This document shows positions 19,392-47,418 of a DNA stretch of 64,000 nucleotides, piece by piece. The position numbers were made by a program, and so were the translations under genes. How positions within the stretch are numbered: the stretch's first letter is position 1; each line of letters begins with the position of its first letter. Under the pieces are notes generated by a model that was not told where the DNA came from, ran no database searches, and saw only the letters and a list, made by a program, of their open reading frames with translations. This DNA is from a virus (Duplodnaviria > Caudoviricetes), in IMG/VR virus record IMGVR_UViG_3300030098_006079; one strand, given 5' to 3'.

Positions 19392-19467
19392 GCCAGTTTA
19401 GCTCAGTTGGTAGAGCACTCGATTTGTAATCGAACGGTCGTCAGTTCGAATCTGACAACTGGCTCCA
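19392..19467 (+). tRNA. trnT: tRNA-Thr(TGT)
   Basis: 76-nt cloverleaf GCCAGTT/AACTGGC, loop TTTGTAA, GTTCGAA, CCA; C27-A43 mismatch. Confidence 0.95.
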
Positions 19468-19486
19468 TTAAATAATTAAAATTAAT

Positions 19487-28111: not shown

Positions 28112-28138
28112 AAAAGGTGGCTTCGGTCACCTTTTTTT
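28112..28138 (+). terminator. Rho-independent terminator
   Basis: aaaaggtggc-TTCG-gtcacctttt; near-identical to 26811. Confidence 0.9.
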
Positions 28139-28153
28139 ATAAATACTTTTGTT

Positions 28154-29526: not shown

Positions 29527-29682
29527 TTACCTAACTCCTGACCCAACTCTTATTGGGAAGTATTGTTTTTTAACCTCTAAGTCACCTCTACCTTCGCAAG
29601 ATGAAACTGCTATTGCTATCATAAAAACTGTTAGCAATACCGTTATAAAAAATTCTTTTCTTTTTTGACTCATTCTACTCAT
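29527..29682 (-). CDS. Small lipoprotein-like protein
   Basis: MSRMSQKRKEFF..IAVSSC; start overlaps the cyclase stop. Confidence 0.5.
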   Translation of the reverse strand: MSRMSQKRKEFFITVLLTVFMIAIAVSSCEGRGDLEVKKQYFPIRVGSGVR

Positions 29683-31252
29683 CAGTTTTAAACTCCGCTT
29701 TTTTTGTTCCTCGCCAATGAGGAAATTCTCTTCTACCAAAATTGTTACCATATGCGGTCCACATATGAACAGTAGTTCCGTGTTTAACTATAACAGGTCC
29801 CCAATCATCAAACTGTAAGCCAGGTATATCCATTTCACATACATACTGGTGTACATCGTTTGATATTAATAAGTGATCATTATCCCCTGCATCCATACAA
29901 CGTTGAGCCATATTAATACCTGTACCGCTTACGTTAGGGTTATCATTTATATCTTTTACAGGGACTACTGGACCAGAATACAATCCATTCCTTAAACCAA
30001 TACTAGAATGTTTATAAGTCATACGCCCTACATCGACCATACACTTAAATGCAGCATTAACGCTATTAAAAAATACTAACGCCATACCATCTCCAGTAGG
30101 TAATATAATTAATTTACCTTGTCTGTCTGCTTGTTGATATCCTTGTGTACCTTTAACACAATCAATTAACTCATCTGTAACTTTCTTTTGCTCAGCTGTA
30201 GTCTTTTTAGAATAACCTACTATATCCATAAAGTAGGTATGAGCTCGACATGGAGAGTCGTATTGAATTCCTTCTCCTTTTAACTTAAATGGATCTTGTC
30301 CCCACTTCCATTTTATAACTCTTTGTTTCTTTTTATCTTCTTCTTCTTTTTGTATTTTCTCAGCTGCTTCTCTTCTTGCTTTAGCTTGTTCGCCTGCTAT
30401 TCTATTCTTTACAGCTTCTCTTTTCTCTTTTTTATCTTTTGATTCAAATAGTTTACCTAACAGCGTATCAGGTTCTTGTAATGCTTTTCTATCTTCATCT
30501 TGTTCTCTACGTTCTTTTCTTATGCGATCTAAAGCTTCGTCGGCAGCTTTATTATCAAAAACTTGATTATTGACTCTTGGTTTGTATTTAGGATTATCCC
30601 TACTAGGGTGTTTACATGCTCCTCTTTTAACTAAGTAGTCAAGCATTACATTACTATTATTAGCATTAGCTATTTCCCAGGCATTATAATGGAATTGATC
30701 ATTAGGATTGTAAGTTGATCCGTTTATGTTCGCTTTAGCATCTAATAAAATTTTAACTATATTAATATTGTTAATATCTACTGCGTAGTGTAAGGCCATC
30801 CACCCTCTATGGTCTCTTGCATTAATTTTTAAACTATCATCTTCTAATAGACCTTCTATTTCATCTATATCTTCTAACTGTACGCATTGATGTAAAGTAA
30901 GTTCTTTATTATAAAACATACCCCCTGCGTCTCTTAATGAACCTACAATTTTATGACGATTAGGTCCATCAGCTACATCCATAGCGGTAACTATAGGACA
31001 TTCTTTGTCCTCCATTATCGCTAAGTTCCAACTACTCTGTCTAACACTTACTGGTTTACTTGGAGTGTTTGGATCTACTCCAGCTTCAAGAATAACGCTT
31101 ACTATTTTTACTTTACTTTTATTAGACGCGTAGTGAAGTGGAGTCCATCCGTTATCTTCATCTGTAGAATAAAATAAATTAGGAGTTTCTAAAGCCCTTT
31201 TTATACATCTTAAGTTCCCCGTCGCAGCTAATTGATGCAAACTCTCATCCAT
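29675..31252 (-). CDS. Ankyrin-repeat / coiled-coil / class III nucleotide cyclase fusion
   Basis: GWTPLHYA and GWMALHYAV ankyrin repeats; FMDIVGYS, PTGDGMALVF, GLYSGPV, GINMAQR cyclase motifs. Confidence 0.9.
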   Translation of the reverse strand: MDESLHQLAATGNLRCIKRALETPNLFYSTDEDNGWTPLHYASNKSKVKIVSVILEAGVDPNTPSKPVSVRQSSWNLAIMEDKECPIVTAMDVADGPNRHKIVGSLRDAGGMFYNKELTLHQCVQLEDIDEIEGLLEDDSLKINARDHRGWMALHYAVDINNINIVKILLDAKANINGSTYNPNDQFHYNAWEIANANNSNVMLDYLVKRGACKHPSRDNPKYKPRVNNQVFDNKAADEALDRIRKERREQDEDRKALQEPDTLLGKLFESKDKKEKREAVKNRIAGEQAKARREAAEKIQKEEEDKKKQRVIKWKWGQDPFKLKGEGIQYDSPCRAHTYFMDIVGYSKKTTAEQKKVTDELIDCVKGTQGYQQADRQGKLIILPTGDGMALVFFNSVNAAFKCMVDVGRMTYKHSSIGLRNGLYSGPVVPVKDINDNPNVSGTGINMAQRCMDAGDNDHLLISNDVHQYVCEMDIPGLQFDDWGPVIVKHGTTVHMWTAYGNNFGRREFPHWRGTKKAEFKTDE

Positions 31253-31260
31253 ATAATTAT

Positions 31261-31545
31261 TTATTCAGCATAGTAGAAGGGAATACTAGCCGAAGCGTGA
31301 CATTCATAACACCTATCATAAGTTTTTACCAATAATTGTATATCATCTGCATGAATATTAACTGAATTATATTCAGGCATAGCCTTTAGTATGTCAACTT
31401 GTCTTTTATATGTTTGACAGGCAGCTATTTGAGCTCTTCTCTTAGCGTTACTGTAGGATTGAACGGCGAGAGCTGTCAATAGCGCTATAATTGTTATAGT
31501 GAGTAATAATTCTAGTAGAGTATATCCTTTATTCCCATGCGTCAT
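31261..31545 (-). CDS. Short type IV prepilin-like protein with C-terminal CxxCH
   Basis: G/YTLLELLLTITIIALL N-methylation motif; RCYECH at 31297-31311. Confidence 0.8.
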   Translation of the reverse strand: MTHGNKGYTLLELLLTITIIALLTALAVQSYSNAKRRAQIAACQTYKRQVDILKAMPEYNSVNIHADDIQLLVKTYDRCYECHASASIPFYYAE

Positions 31546-32509
31546 CCCAATACCATCCCCATGAGTCGAAAGTTTTTCCTGATATATCTCTTAAATTCCA
31601 CTCTCTTACATATCGTCCAATACCTCCACCCATCCAACCTTTCCATGGATGATTGTTAGGATAAGGGACAATAGCTCTTTCTTGTAACCACTGCAAATCT
31701 CTATTACCCGGGCTTACTACTTGTTCTAGACTAGTGTTAGGGTTCTTTACATGTTCTGGTATGTTTTTAGTGAGCTCTTCTAACCATCTTCTAAACTCAA
31801 CATGCCCATCAGTAAATGATACCACTGATCCATTTATATGATATATACCAGGCCAATCCATAGAAAATATAGACTCCTTATCTTTTAGTACAGGAACTAC
31901 TCTAAAGTTACCTGCGTTAATTGATTCTGCTGGCATCTCAATAAATGTAAACATGTTACTCGGGTCAGTTATATCTGCATATTTGTGATGTACTTTATAT
32001 TGATTGTCATATAAAAAAGGCCATCCTGACCATCCACCTACAAATATATTCATACTGTATGATCTTGCTCGTTGTACAGTAGTAACTTTATTTGTACCAG
32101 AAGAGGGAGGAGGGACCATTCCCCATCTTCCACCATCCCAAGTTACAGTAGACTTATCTTGAGGACAACGATAGATACCTTTACCGGCATACTGGAACAA
32201 AGGAGACCAAATTAAAGACCTTTCCGTTTGAGCCCATTTGCTCCACTTACTACCACCTGACATACTATCAGCTACCCAGGCTCTTGGTGCAGTAGGTTCG
32301 TTGTGCCAAGCAGATGCGTATGCTATTTTATCATCAGAGTCTAATGCTAGCTGACTCATAGCATAGTTTAGTTGCTTATGATTAGAAATACAAAGAGCTT
32401 TAGATGCAGACTGCTTTGACTTAGATAAAGCAGGTAATAATAAGGCAGCAAGTATAGCTATTATAGCTATTACTACAAGTAGTTCTATTAAAGAAAAGGC
32501 TTTTTTCAT
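31529..32509 (-). CDS. Prepilin-type cleavage/methylation protein, DUF1559-like with H-X9-DG C-terminus
   Basis: AFSLIELLVVIAIIAILAALLLPAL, CISNHKQL, YRCPQD, SYSMN, H-INGSVVSFT-DG-H. Confidence 0.92.
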   Translation of the reverse strand: MKKAFSLIELLVVIAIIAILAALLLPALSKSKQSASKALCISNHKQLNYAMSQLALDSDDKIAYASAWHNEPTAPRAWVADSMSGGSKWSKWAQTERSLIWSPLFQYAGKGIYRCPQDKSTVTWDGGRWGMVPPPSSGTNKVTTVQRARSYSMNIFVGGWSGWPFLYDNQYKVHHKYADITDPSNMFTFIEMPAESINAGNFRVVPVLKDKESIFSMDWPGIYHINGSVVSFTDGHVEFRRWLEELTKNIPEHVKNPNTSLEQVVSPGNRDLQWLQERAIVPYPNNHPWKGWMGGGIGRYVREWNLRDISGKTFDSWGWYWDDAWE

Positions 32510-32534
32510 CTCTTTAACTATTTAGAGTTAAATA

Positions 32535-32765
32535 TTACTTACTCAAATAAGATGATAATAAAGAAGTTGCGAAACCAATCACAGAAGCTCCTATAGCACC
32601 ATACATAATTATTTTAGTACTTAGTGTAGCTAATTGCACTTCTATTTTCTTTTGGTTCTTTTGAAGCTCTTCGATATCTGAGTTTAGACGACTTAACTCA
32701 CTGAGTACCAAACGTCTCCACTCAGCCCAGGAACCGTTCTCTAATTTATTTGGATCATTACTCAT
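32535..32765 (-). CDS. Small coiled-coil + C-terminal TM protein (holin/XhlA-like)
   Basis: Heptad region followed by IIMYGAIGASVIGFATSLL. Confidence 0.55.
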   Translation of the reverse strand: MSNDPNKLENGSWAEWRRLVLSELSRLNSDIEELQKNQKKIEVQLATLSTKIIMYGAIGASVIGFATSLLSSYLSK

Positions 32766-33099
32766 GCGGGACAAGGGTTACTTTTTTATGTATTAATTTG
32801 CCATTTCTGTTTAGATCTCTTATCTTTACTGTGTGAGTGGCACCATTGATATCTACTGTGACTGTCTTTCTAGACCATTTTGAAATATCTACACCAATAA
32901 TACTTTTTAGACCCTTGTTGTGGATTTCTGTACTATCCACTTCAAATGACTGTTGAAAGAATTCATTGCACCATTTAATTCTGCCTGCTTCGGATACCAG
33001 CACGATGGAATAATCCGCTTCAGTAACATAATTAATAAAGTCGTTTTCATGCAGCTCTAGCTGATGTGTCAACTTTTCTAATTTCTTCAAATTAGTCAC
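32758..33099 (-). CDS. Stand-alone PAS-fold protein
   Basis: SIVLVSEAGRIKWCNEFFQQSFEVDSTEIHNK fits the PAS signature; ATAAATA upstream on - strand. Confidence 0.6.
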   Translation of the reverse strand: MTNLKKLEKLTHQLELHENDFINYVTEADYSIVLVSEAGRIKWCNEFFQQSFEVDSTEIHNKGLKSIIGVDISKWSRKTVTVDINGATHTVKIRDLNRNGKLIHKKVTLVPHE

Positions 33100-33133
33100 T
33101 TGTAATTATTTATGGAAAAGCTACAATAAAAGT

Positions 33134-34180: not shown

Positions 34181-34543
34181 ATGAGTATGAAGAAAATCAT
34201 ATTGACAGTAGCCTTAATCGGCTTAATGAGTAGTCCAGTCCAAGCGGGCTGGTTCGGTGCGAAGTTCGGAGAAACATCTAGTGTTACTCTTTTCGGTCAA
34301 ACACTTCAAGTGTCTGTTCCAAGTGTAACATTGGGGAGCGCAGCTGGTACGAAAGTATCTGCATCAGCAGATTCTGGTAGTGCTAGTGTTTCACTTCCGT
34401 TCATCAAAATAGGAGCTAAAACTCCTAAACTGACTGTAGGAGTACCTGGTACCCAAAAGGTATCTGTTTCTACAGAAGGTATCAAAACAGTAGGAGCTAA
34501 AAAGGCGGGTCCAGCTAAGAAGAAAGCTGGTAAAAAGAAGTAA
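34181..34543 (+). CDS. Exported beta-rich protein with basic tail
   Basis: Signal peptide ending VQA; ATAAATA upstream. Confidence 0.65.
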   Translation: MSMKKIILTVALIGLMSSPVQAGWFGAKFGETSSVTLFGQTLQVSVPSVTLGSAAGTKVSASADSGSASVSLPFIKIGAKTPKLTVGVPGTQKVSVSTEGIKTVGAKKAGPAKKKAGKKK

Positions 34544-34600: not shown

Positions 34601-34650
34601 CTCTAAAATAAAAGGTTGAAATTTAAATTTCGTATGCTATAAATAATGTT

Positions 34651-35426: not shown

Positions 35427-35535
35427 TTTCTTCTTCACGACAATTGTCACACAATAGTTTGAGTGTGTGGTTAATATTCGTCCATGTTAGCTCTTGTTCT
35501 TTGTATCTTTGCTTACAATTTTCACACTCACACAT
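35377..35535 (-). CDS. Zinc-ribbon-like peptide (52 aa, below ORF-track cutoff)
   Basis: MCECENCKQRYKEQ..LLCDNCREEE; CxxC..CxxC. Confidence 0.5.
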   Translation of the reverse strand: MCECENCKQRYKEQELTWTNINHTLKLLCDNCREEETISSSSSLISSLSSER

Positions 35536-35545
35536 ATAAATACTT

Positions 35546-47068: not shown

Positions 47069-47190
47069 TGCGGAGTTCTTATAATAGGTTTTAATGCACG
47101 TCGACCGAGCAAGTGAACGGAGTGGTCTGCAAAACCATCTATGCAGGGGGCGGTACCCTGGGCGTGCTCCAATTTCTTATAAATACTTAC

Positions 47191-47418
47191 ATGGCTGATC
47201 GTGATGAAAAGAACAAAGAGAATGTAGAAGGTAAGTATTATGTAGATGAGCAGTGTATTGACTGTGATTTATGTAGAGAGGAGGCTCCGAATAATTTTAC
47301 TAGAGAAGATAATGAAGGTTATTCCTATGTATATAAGCAGCCAGAGAATGATCTAGAGGAAGAGATGTGTCAGAGTGCATTAGACAATTGTCCCGTTGAA
47401 GCTATAGGTAATGACTGA
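47191..47418 (+). CDS. Single-cluster 4Fe-4S ferredoxin
   Basis: CIDCDLC..APNNF..CPVEAI; TATAAATA-CTTAC-ATG. Confidence 0.92.
   Translation: MADRDEKNKENVEGKYYVDEQCIDCDLCREEAPNNFTREDNEGYSYVYKQPENDLEEEMCQSALDNCPVEAIGND

Follow-up and report, generated by a model that had tools for sequence, protein, structure and literature searches.

The 64,000-nucleotide stretch of viral DNA analysed here (from now on, the window) carries a cassette of two overlapping prepilin genes belonging to a phage-only clade of DUF1559-like pilins, which, as shown below, is borne mainly by marine T4-like phages. We are highly confident about the identity, origin and host of this cassette. Its products are divergent DUF1559-like prepilins that the phage lineage took from a bacterium, and, judging by the sequences compared, the host of the phage is very probably a verrucomicrobium. 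The features on which the analysis relies are the following.

31529..32509, minus strand: large phage prepilin, called A, of 326 aa (ORF, PF07963 and TIGR02532)
31261..31545, minus strand: small phage prepilin of 94 aa, a two-helix mini-pilin (ORF and PF07963)
29675..31252, minus strand: ankyrin-repeat protein, downstream of the cassette (ankyrin Pfam matches)
32535..33099, minus strand: two upstream co-oriented genes that head the minus-strand island (ORFs; synteny in loci L095 and L105)
32519..32526, minus strand: TCTAAATA, a T4 late-promoter-like word with one mismatch, 17 nt ahead of the start codon of pilin A
19392..19469, plus strand: tRNA-Thr(TGT), a host marker (ARAGORN and Rfam)

Prepilin signals and family membership

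The two ORFs are coupled as first described, with 326 and 94 aa, both on the minus strand and with an overlap of 17 nt. The prepilin cleavage/methylation signal that the initial annotation recognised is genuine in both of them, as the cut-offs of Pfam N_methyl (PF07963) and NCBIfam TIGR02532 are exceeded; for PF07963, the large pilin scores 26.3 bits and the small one 27.2 bits, with a cut-off of 21.2. In pilin A, the N-terminus MKKA/FSLIE comprises a leader of four residues (M-K-K-A), followed by F at +1, E at +5 and the hydrophobic alpha1, and in the small pilin (MTHGNKG/YTLLE) the leader MTHGNKG precedes Y at +1, E at +5 and, again, a hydrophobic helix. The N-methylation motif of pilin A had been called complete and the signal is indeed real, but position −1 is occupied by Ala rather than Gly. 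Across 116 aligned relatives of pilin A this residue is Ala in 52 and Gly in 64, and, judged by this alignment, Ala at −1 is normal for the family and no defect. The prepilin signal, including E+5, is strictly conserved across all phage copies.

The description of pilin A as a DUF1559-like protein with an H-X9-DG C-terminus needs some qualification. At E 0.01 or better, PF07596 (DUF1559) has no match in the window protein itself, whereas 40 of the 116 aligned relatives are recognised by it (best 1.8e-9), and "DUF1559-like" is therefore a fair label and pilin A may be considered a divergent member by transitivity. Similarly, the literal word H224...D234-G235 is present, but it sits some 90 residues before the C-terminus, and TIGR04294 (the H-X9-DG domain) scores 17.0 bits at residues 221-239, under its 19-bit cut-off. 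The DUF1559 family is huge in bacteria, where 165,280 representatives reach an E of 0.001 or better, and an exhaustive HMMER search showed that its ordinary members align to pilin A up to residue ~280. They are without the final 45 residues, a Trp-rich tail (SWGWYWDDAWE) that is common to very few groups, namely one verrucomicrobial subfamily and the phage clade. All of the family-invariant residues (C40, C115, R149, H224, D234, W242, D271 and W274) are kept in the phage copies, H236 is kept in at least 90% of the aligned rows, and the sole hypervariable, indel-rich part is a surface loop at residues ~120-145. No equivalog of the type II secretion pseudopilins GspG/H/I/J/K matched over the whole protein, the similarity covering the N-terminal 35-60 residues only, with 16-31 bits against cut-offs of 65-89.

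The small pilin has 119 relatives, every one of them from marine metagenomes. Its invariant columns are C43 and C79-x-x-C82-H83, and the word C79-Y-E-C82-H83 is invariant in 16 relatives. Despite this CXXCH word, no cytochrome family of Pfam or NCBIfam matches the small pilin and, as C43 occupies, in the alignment, the position of the disulfide Cys in the large pilins, a disulfide is as good a reading as haem attachment.

A marine T4-like phage lineage

The phage-only clade to which pilin A belongs comprises ~50 non-redundant marine viral contigs. In an alignment scan of IMG/VR, 312 viral stretches were found to encode relatives, with more than 55 loci 57-85% identical, and 25 public contigs, the longest of 202 kb, carry exactly the pilin A protein of the window. 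Among the INPHARED phages, no DNA relative of the window was found except a ThyX fragment, and tblastn gave no match for the large pilin.

One of the IMG/VR loci, L095, is the genome G001, of 200,819 bp, which has direct terminal repeats and is estimated to be 100% complete. It encodes the T4 gp23 capsid protein (E 5e-90) and is syntenic with the island of the window, where the 113-aa gene, the 79-aa gene, pilin A, a second pilin and the ankyrin protein follow one another. The initial statement that the phage is lytic draws its support from this relative, which is T4-like and has no tyrosine integrase, and not from the window. Additionally, G001 has no prepilin peptidase (Peptidase_A24) and no assembly ATPase (T2SSE) above the cut-off, its N_methyl genes number two in total, both within the cassette, and the phage pilins have no gene for a secretin, platform or ATPase linked to them. 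The dN/dS between phage pilin copies is 0.02-0.10 (pairwise, with saturated dS), which indicates that the pilin gene is functional in phages, and its GC content of 38% matches the 36% of the phage.

Cassette architecture and neighbouring genes

The architecture of the cassette was counted in 48 non-redundant loci, in which pilin A is the constant element. It stands alone in 21/48 loci and is accompanied by a small pilin in 10/48, by a second large paralogue, called B, in 6/48, and by a pilin truncated where the contig stops in 9/48; one further locus (1/48) has A, a small pilin and B, and another (1/48) has A, B and two small pilins. Cassettes range, therefore, from one to four prepilin genes, the fullest having two large and two small ones. 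Such four-pilin cassettes resemble a minor-pilin tip set. As A is alone in 21/48 loci, the small pilin is no obligate partner. Where the pair formed by A and the small pilin is present, its gene neighbourhoods are quite different among close relatives, which suggests that the pair moves as a unit.

Downstream, the ankyrin gene begins 8 nt past the small pilin, with AATAAATA located 13 nt ahead of its start, and an ankyrin protein comes after the pilin cassette in 7 phage loci. The upstream pair of genes codes for a 113-aa PAS-like protein (a weak PAS match) and a 79-aa coiled-coil protein with a C-terminal membrane helix. The minus-strand island has small membrane or lipoprotein-like ORFs too, and the window contains many host-like metabolic genes, such as those coding for PurT, a PfkB kinase and ThyX.

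Predicted structures

The AlphaFold2 model of pilin A, obtained with 116 sequences, has a pLDDT of 88.4 and a pTM of 0.87, and consists of a helix at residues 7-57 followed by a mostly beta domain. Type IV pilins or pseudopilins accounted for 25 of the 30 chains ranked best by an all-against-all structural search, with Z of at most 4.6 throughout. A Foldseek comparison of the model with the PDB gave nothing at E 0.001 or better, and the matches of a PDB sequence search were confined to the N-terminal helix of pilins. We tentatively read pilin A as a pilin core that would carry large insertions. The model of the small pilin (pLDDT 82) has helices at residues 10-55 and 66-85 and no sheet, and the complex prediction for the large (29-326) and small (32-94) pilins gave a score of 0.01, which is uninformative in either direction.

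These models bear on the possibility that the phage pilins are poison subunits that jam the assembly platform of the host and abolish the fibre, blocking pilus-dependent phages, DNA uptake or motility. The small pilin, made of two helices with no beta-sheet, is like the truncated PilA-like proteins, of 60 residues, known from Pseudomonas phages, for which a possible block of assembly was suggested by the authors (PMC12952977), and other phage proteins are known as pilus assembly inhibitors. However, pilin A keeps its whole globular domain, the H...DG site and the Trp-rich tail of the host pair, none of which a plug would need, its dN/dS is 0.02-0.10 along the full length, and the commonest architecture is A alone. 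Given the conserved globular domain and the purifying selection, poisoning is the least supported option and an improbable one.

Origin of the phage pilins

A maximum-likelihood tree was obtained for 108 proteins by a quick search, SH-aLRT being the only measure of support. All A and B copies of the phages fall into a single clade of 56 rows (SH-aLRT 99), within which A (97) and B (100) are separate. Its sister is a bacterial clade of 17 rows (SH-aLRT 92), and the joint phage and bacterial clade, with a support of 100, is nested among ordinary bacterial DUF1559 proteins, which argues for a transfer from bacterium to phage, once for the phage lineage. That A and B group together in the tree (SH-aLRT 84) suggests that they were duplicated within the phage clade, and that they do not correspond one-to-one with the two host genes. 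Unrelated DUF1559-like pilins are present on other terminase-bearing viral records, one of them complete at 354 kb, so phages have captured this family repeatedly.

The bacterial sister clade corresponds to a tandem pair, with one protein of 302/306 aa and another of 321 aa. For instance, MFL2909954.1, an NCBI "type II secretion system protein" from a 755-kb contig of a Limisphaerales MAG, is a member of this clade. The pair is also carried by G010, a marine MAG of the candidate host family of Verrucomicrobiota, and it was found, usually in tandem, in 18 of the 26 species genomes of the GTDB family of G010 (E <1e-45, 42-50% identity). Order-wide, with 27 candidates scored per genome, the pair was found in 2 of 81 genomes, both from the same family. 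The genes flanking the bacterial pair are always those of a GDSL-type hydrolase and of an alpha/beta-hydrolase esterase, and the GC of the genomes concerned ranges over 42-60%. The proposal that the phage genes are host-style prepilins is thus borne out, their nearest cellular relatives (42-50% identity) being the tandem pair, which in the genomes searched is restricted to one marine Verrucomicrobiota family, and the phage pilins are at most 50% identical to any cellular protein.

A bacterial-type pilin in a viral record could also be an artefact or an inert passenger, that is, mis-assembled bacterial DNA or a recent and functionless capture. IMG/VR includes some misclassified contigs and, as mentioned, the DUF1559 family is huge in bacteria. 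Against this, the identical protein is found on 25 contigs, reaching 202 kb in length, and the synteny of the gene extends to a complete genome with gp23. The phage clade is also monophyletic and old, with 57-87% identity among its members and at most 50% to any cell, selection on the gene is purifying, and its GC of 38% matches the 36% of the phage. The number of contigs, the synteny, the monophyly, the selection and the GC refute this explanation for practical purposes, and its probability is negligible.

Host of the phage

The initial annotation had proposed a Verrucomicrobia host, and two independent lines of evidence, the pilin phylogeny and the tRNA-Thr, agree with it by pointing to the same marine Verrucomicrobiota family. 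The best pilin matches were examined for any position outside PVC; they fall within PVC (Verrucomicrobiota), which leaves the host claim unrefuted. In 7 genomes of the candidate family, a tRNA gene matches the tRNA-Thr of the phage with 100% identity over 76-78 nt, and in 12 more the identity is 96-97%. Elsewhere, among 301 genomes sampled evenly over the Verrucomicrobiota phylum, the best identity is 94% and none reaches 96%; as the comparison spans this phylum, the uniqueness of the 100% match holds within the phylum only. The flanks of the bacterial tRNA-Thr loci are unlike the phage, which indicates that these loci are bacterial genes.

Several members of the candidate family have a GC content of ~40%, near the 36% of the phage. 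A prepilin peptidase is encoded in all five of the candidate-family genomes tested (5/5), one in each, the enzyme of the host family having 382 aa, and the candidate host has 33-137 candidate pilin paralogues per genome. The NCBI records with close relatives are metagenome assemblies and not single-cell genomes and, consequently, provide no direct link to a cell. A T4-like myovirus has been recorded in a marine Verrucomicrobia single cell (PMC4611503).

PurT was considered as another host marker and rejected as ambiguous, since close PurT proteins (65-72%) occur in 3 of the 26 family genomes, while the phylum-wide best is 66%. One of these close PurT genes sits in a 35%-GC patch of a family genome with 59% GC.

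Promoter words and timing of expression

T4 gp55 recognises TATAAATA, and in the window the related word TCTAAATA precedes pilin A, as listed above. In relatives of pilin A, the same position is occupied by TATAAATA in L095, by AATAAATA in L001 and L105, and by TGTAAATA in L087, with flanks that differ. Additionally, CATAAATA is located 15 nt ahead of the first gene of the minus-strand island. The T4 late promoter core, ATAAATA, has 33 copies in the window and, at 8-25 nt upstream of gene starts on the coding strand, 11 copies were found against 0.5 expected, a 22-fold enrichment. Among the genes preceded by such a copy are the one at 1443, which codes for the giant tail fibre, the ankyrin gene and the gene that heads the minus-strand island. 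The exact TATAAATA 8-mer has no window-wide enrichment, and its position relative to gene starts alone is informative. By analogy with T4, these words suggest that the pilin cassette would be transcribed late in infection, a timing that fits the protection of progeny or the remodelling of the surface better than a classical immediate-early exclusion.

In a scan of the window for sigma-70 promoters and terminators, promoter-like sites were no commoner than in shuffled sequence. In four marine RNA libraries, contigs were found over the ankyrin gene, both upstream genes and a 120-aa gene at 34181, and one of these contigs spans exactly 32535-33101. No RNA-library contig at 90% identity or more was found over 31414-32418; as contigs cannot show absence, this result is neutral on expression.

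The promoter words are also relevant for a role outside any fibre, in which the phage proteins would be membrane-anchored in the periplasm and act in the timing of lysis or in envelope remodelling at egress, or would be associated with the virion. The late-promoter-like word before A, together with the exact ones before its relatives, would suit such a role; the same word is found before the giant tail-fibre gene, and the small membrane or lipoprotein-like ORFs of the island would suit it as well. However, the strictly conserved prepilin signal with E+5 argues for processing by the peptidase and for a pilin-type assembly, and no known virion or lysis family of Pfam or NCBIfam is matched. Prepilins insert into the membrane, which is hard to square with the assembly of virions in the cytoplasm. 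Overall, we regard a role of this kind as highly improbable.

Possible purpose of the cassette

The explanation that we favour is that the phage maintains a host-derived prepilin cassette, in which pseudopilin A is translationally coupled to the 94-aa mini-pilin, to change a surface fibre of the infected cell. The phage pilins would be cut by a PilD-type peptidase of the host and then taken by its pilus or pseudopilus machinery. A phage with neither a prepilin peptidase nor an assembly ATPase must have its pilins rely on the peptidase and machinery of the host and, from this gene content, such a dependence is probable. Once assembled, the phage pilins would replace or supplement the orthologous pair of the host and, by analogy with the systems discussed below, the fibre would be altered, probably late in infection. 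The most likely benefit would be to keep other phages, as well as the phage's own progeny, from adsorbing to cells already infected and to their debris. Taken loosely, the whole chain, from host-derived pilins through host machinery and an altered surface fibre to a block of adsorption, has in our estimation a probability of about 0.45. The adsorption-blocking purpose in itself, which is proposed by analogy, is tentative and rather doubtful.

The closest published parallel is that of the FimU-like prophage pilins of P. aeruginosa, and this is the reason why replacement or supplementation of the host pair is favoured. In that case, pilins of phage origin are incorporated into a pilus that remains functional, and phages that bind to its tip are blocked (PMC12952977). 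Several observations, however, stand against the reading that we favour. The evolution of the pilins is conservative and not like an arms race, unlike that of the highly diverse P-FimU; the late-promoter-like word is unlike what is found in the classical exclusion genes imm and sp of T4; the location of the host pair between two esterase-type hydrolases hints at substrate handling; and the small pilin is not obligate, as A is alone in 21/48 loci.

The hint of substrate handling leads to the main rival explanation, an auxiliary function in which the phage copies would sustain or boost uptake or secretion by the host through the GDSL-hydrolase/pilin/pilin/esterase block, in a way that recalls the support of phosphate uptake by cyanophage pstS. 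Such a function would agree with the conservation of every family-invariant, active-site-like residue under strong purifying selection, with the fact that the host pair and two hydrolases make up a four-gene block, conserved in genomes whose GC is 42-60%, and with the abundance of host-like metabolic genes (PurT, PfkB kinase and ThyX) in the window. By contrast, the phages acquired the pilins only and never the hydrolases, and neither riboswitches (Rfam) nor any other ligand clue were found at the host pair or in the window. Additionally, since the host has 33-137 candidate paralogues, an extra copy would add little unless it is specific, and an identity of 42-50% to the host pair makes these genes more diverged than most auxiliary metabolic genes. 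On this balance, an auxiliary function is somewhat unlikely.

To return to the altered fibre, a more ambitious version of this explanation is that a modular set of up to four phage pilins, expressed late and often with the ankyrin protein, re-tips or rebuilds a fibre specific to PVC bacteria. In this form, the proposal must be considered unlikely.

Meaning of the findings

The results assign a probable host, one marine Verrucomicrobiota family, to abundant uncultured T4-like phages of the ocean. DUF1559 is among the largest paralogue families of PVC bacteria; in Planctopirus limnophila, for instance, it outnumbers every other paralogue group and includes two essential members (PMC10632474). 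Within this family, the subfamily selected by phages singles out a tractable gene pair. The replacement of pilus subunits by phages, as it is found in Pseudomonas prophages, would be extended to lytic marine phages and to another pilin family. If the proposal of a fibre-rebuilding set is true, such a set would constitute a surface organelle programmed by a virus, and would offer a first experimental handle on the role of DUF1559 proteins, for example as a phage receptor or a substrate-capturing fibre.

Comparison with known systems

Phage-encoded pilins as such are already known, as PilA-like genes, some of them truncated, have been noted in virulent phages, and PilA-like genes are also present in Xylella prophages (PMC12952977). 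We came across no paper that describes DUF1559-type pilins in phages.

With P-FimU, from the F10-like phages of P. aeruginosa, the window shares a diverged copy of a host pilin in a phage, with no assembly genes and a requirement for host machinery. The proposed outcome would also be the same, namely altered phage adsorption. By contrast, the pilins of the window belong to the DUF1559/H-X9-DG family of PVC bacteria and not to FimU or PilA, and they are found in a lineage of lytic T4-like marine phages, whereas P-FimU is found in prophages. The window lineage also has cassettes of one to four genes, conservative evolution and, probably, late expression, while P-FimU is hyper-diverse.

In comparison with the PF07596/TIGR04294 proteins of Planctomycetota, Verrucomicrobiota and Lentisphaerota, the large pilin has the same prepilin signal, invariant Cys pair, Arg, His...Asp-Gly-His and Trp, but it is under both cut-offs, has the extra 45-residue Trp-rich tail and is encoded by a virus. 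The tandem pair of Verrucomicrobiota is closer, as it forms the sister clade, with 42-50% identity, has the Trp-rich tail, and is arranged in tandem like the A and B genes of the phages; it differs in that the bacterial pair sits between a GDSL hydrolase and an alpha/beta esterase. Finally, the GspG-K and FimU-PilVWX tip sets resemble the phage cassettes in their short leaders, in E+5 and in the combination of one large and several small subunits, although the match with them is confined to the N-terminal helix and the phage genes have no linked secretin, platform or ATPase.

Host-like genes

A tRNA gene and a small ORF of the phage have counterparts in bacterial genomes:

19392-19469 (+), tRNA-Thr(TGT)
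47113-47418 (+), 101-aa ORF

Seven genomes, all from one marine Verrucomicrobiota family, carry a tRNA gene 100% identical to that of the phage, and this tRNA is a strong marker of the host for the phage as a whole. The 101-aa ORF is another host-like gene: the candidate host family has counterparts at 60-67% identity in two of its genomes (loci L203 and L204). Additionally, a PurT gene with 70% identity to that of the phage is found at locus L196 (G112:C3:270690-274843), surrounded by a patch of 35% GC in a genome of otherwise about 59% GC. This patch may be an island of viral or horizontally acquired DNA, or may result from a binning error.

Pilins in hosts and in other viruses

In the candidate host family, the pilin pair orthologous to the phage pilins always has a GDSL/SGNH hydrolase on one side and an alpha/beta-hydrolase esterase on the other, forming a four-gene block:

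L164, 8723-12726
L179, 4745-8723
L181, 5391-9520

Such an arrangement may hint at what the orthologous DUF1559 subfamily handles. Further DUF1559-like pilins, unrelated to the phage pilin clade of the window, occur on terminase-bearing viral records of IMG/VR (L139-L162), for instance:

L140, 42-kb contig, three consecutive DUF1559-like pilins
L141, complete 353,772-bp viral record, DUF1559-like pilin
L148-L162, viral records, 218-aa DUF1559-like pilin

Thus, the family looks to have been captured by phages recurrently.

The mini-pilin and the neighbours of the pilin island

31261-31545 (-), 94-aa mini-pilin with a C-x-x-C-H word and C43
33134-33895 (+), PfkB-family sugar kinase gene
34181-34543 (+), gene for a 120-aa protein (signal peptide, Lys-rich tail)

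Both C79-Y-E-C82-H83 and C43 are invariant among relatives of the mini-pilin with identities as low as 46%. C-x-x-C-H is the c-type haem attachment motif, although a disulfide with the first helix and a metal site are equally possible. The kinase gene and the pilin island are divergently oriented, with a spacer of only 34 nt between them. The 120-aa gene has AATAAATA located 10 nt 5′ of it; in contigs from four marine RNA libraries, it is covered far more deeply than any other part of the region.

Late-promoter-like words

In the whole window, ATAAATA is present 8-25 nt upstream of 11 gene starts (0.5 expected), and a cluster occurs at 26-37 kb. Examples are:

28138-28145, ATAAATA
33107-33114 (-), ATAAATA
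34638-34645, ATAAATA
35535-35542, ATAAATA

This word is the core of the T4 late promoter; in the window, its distance to the start codon (10-21 nt) is unusually short.
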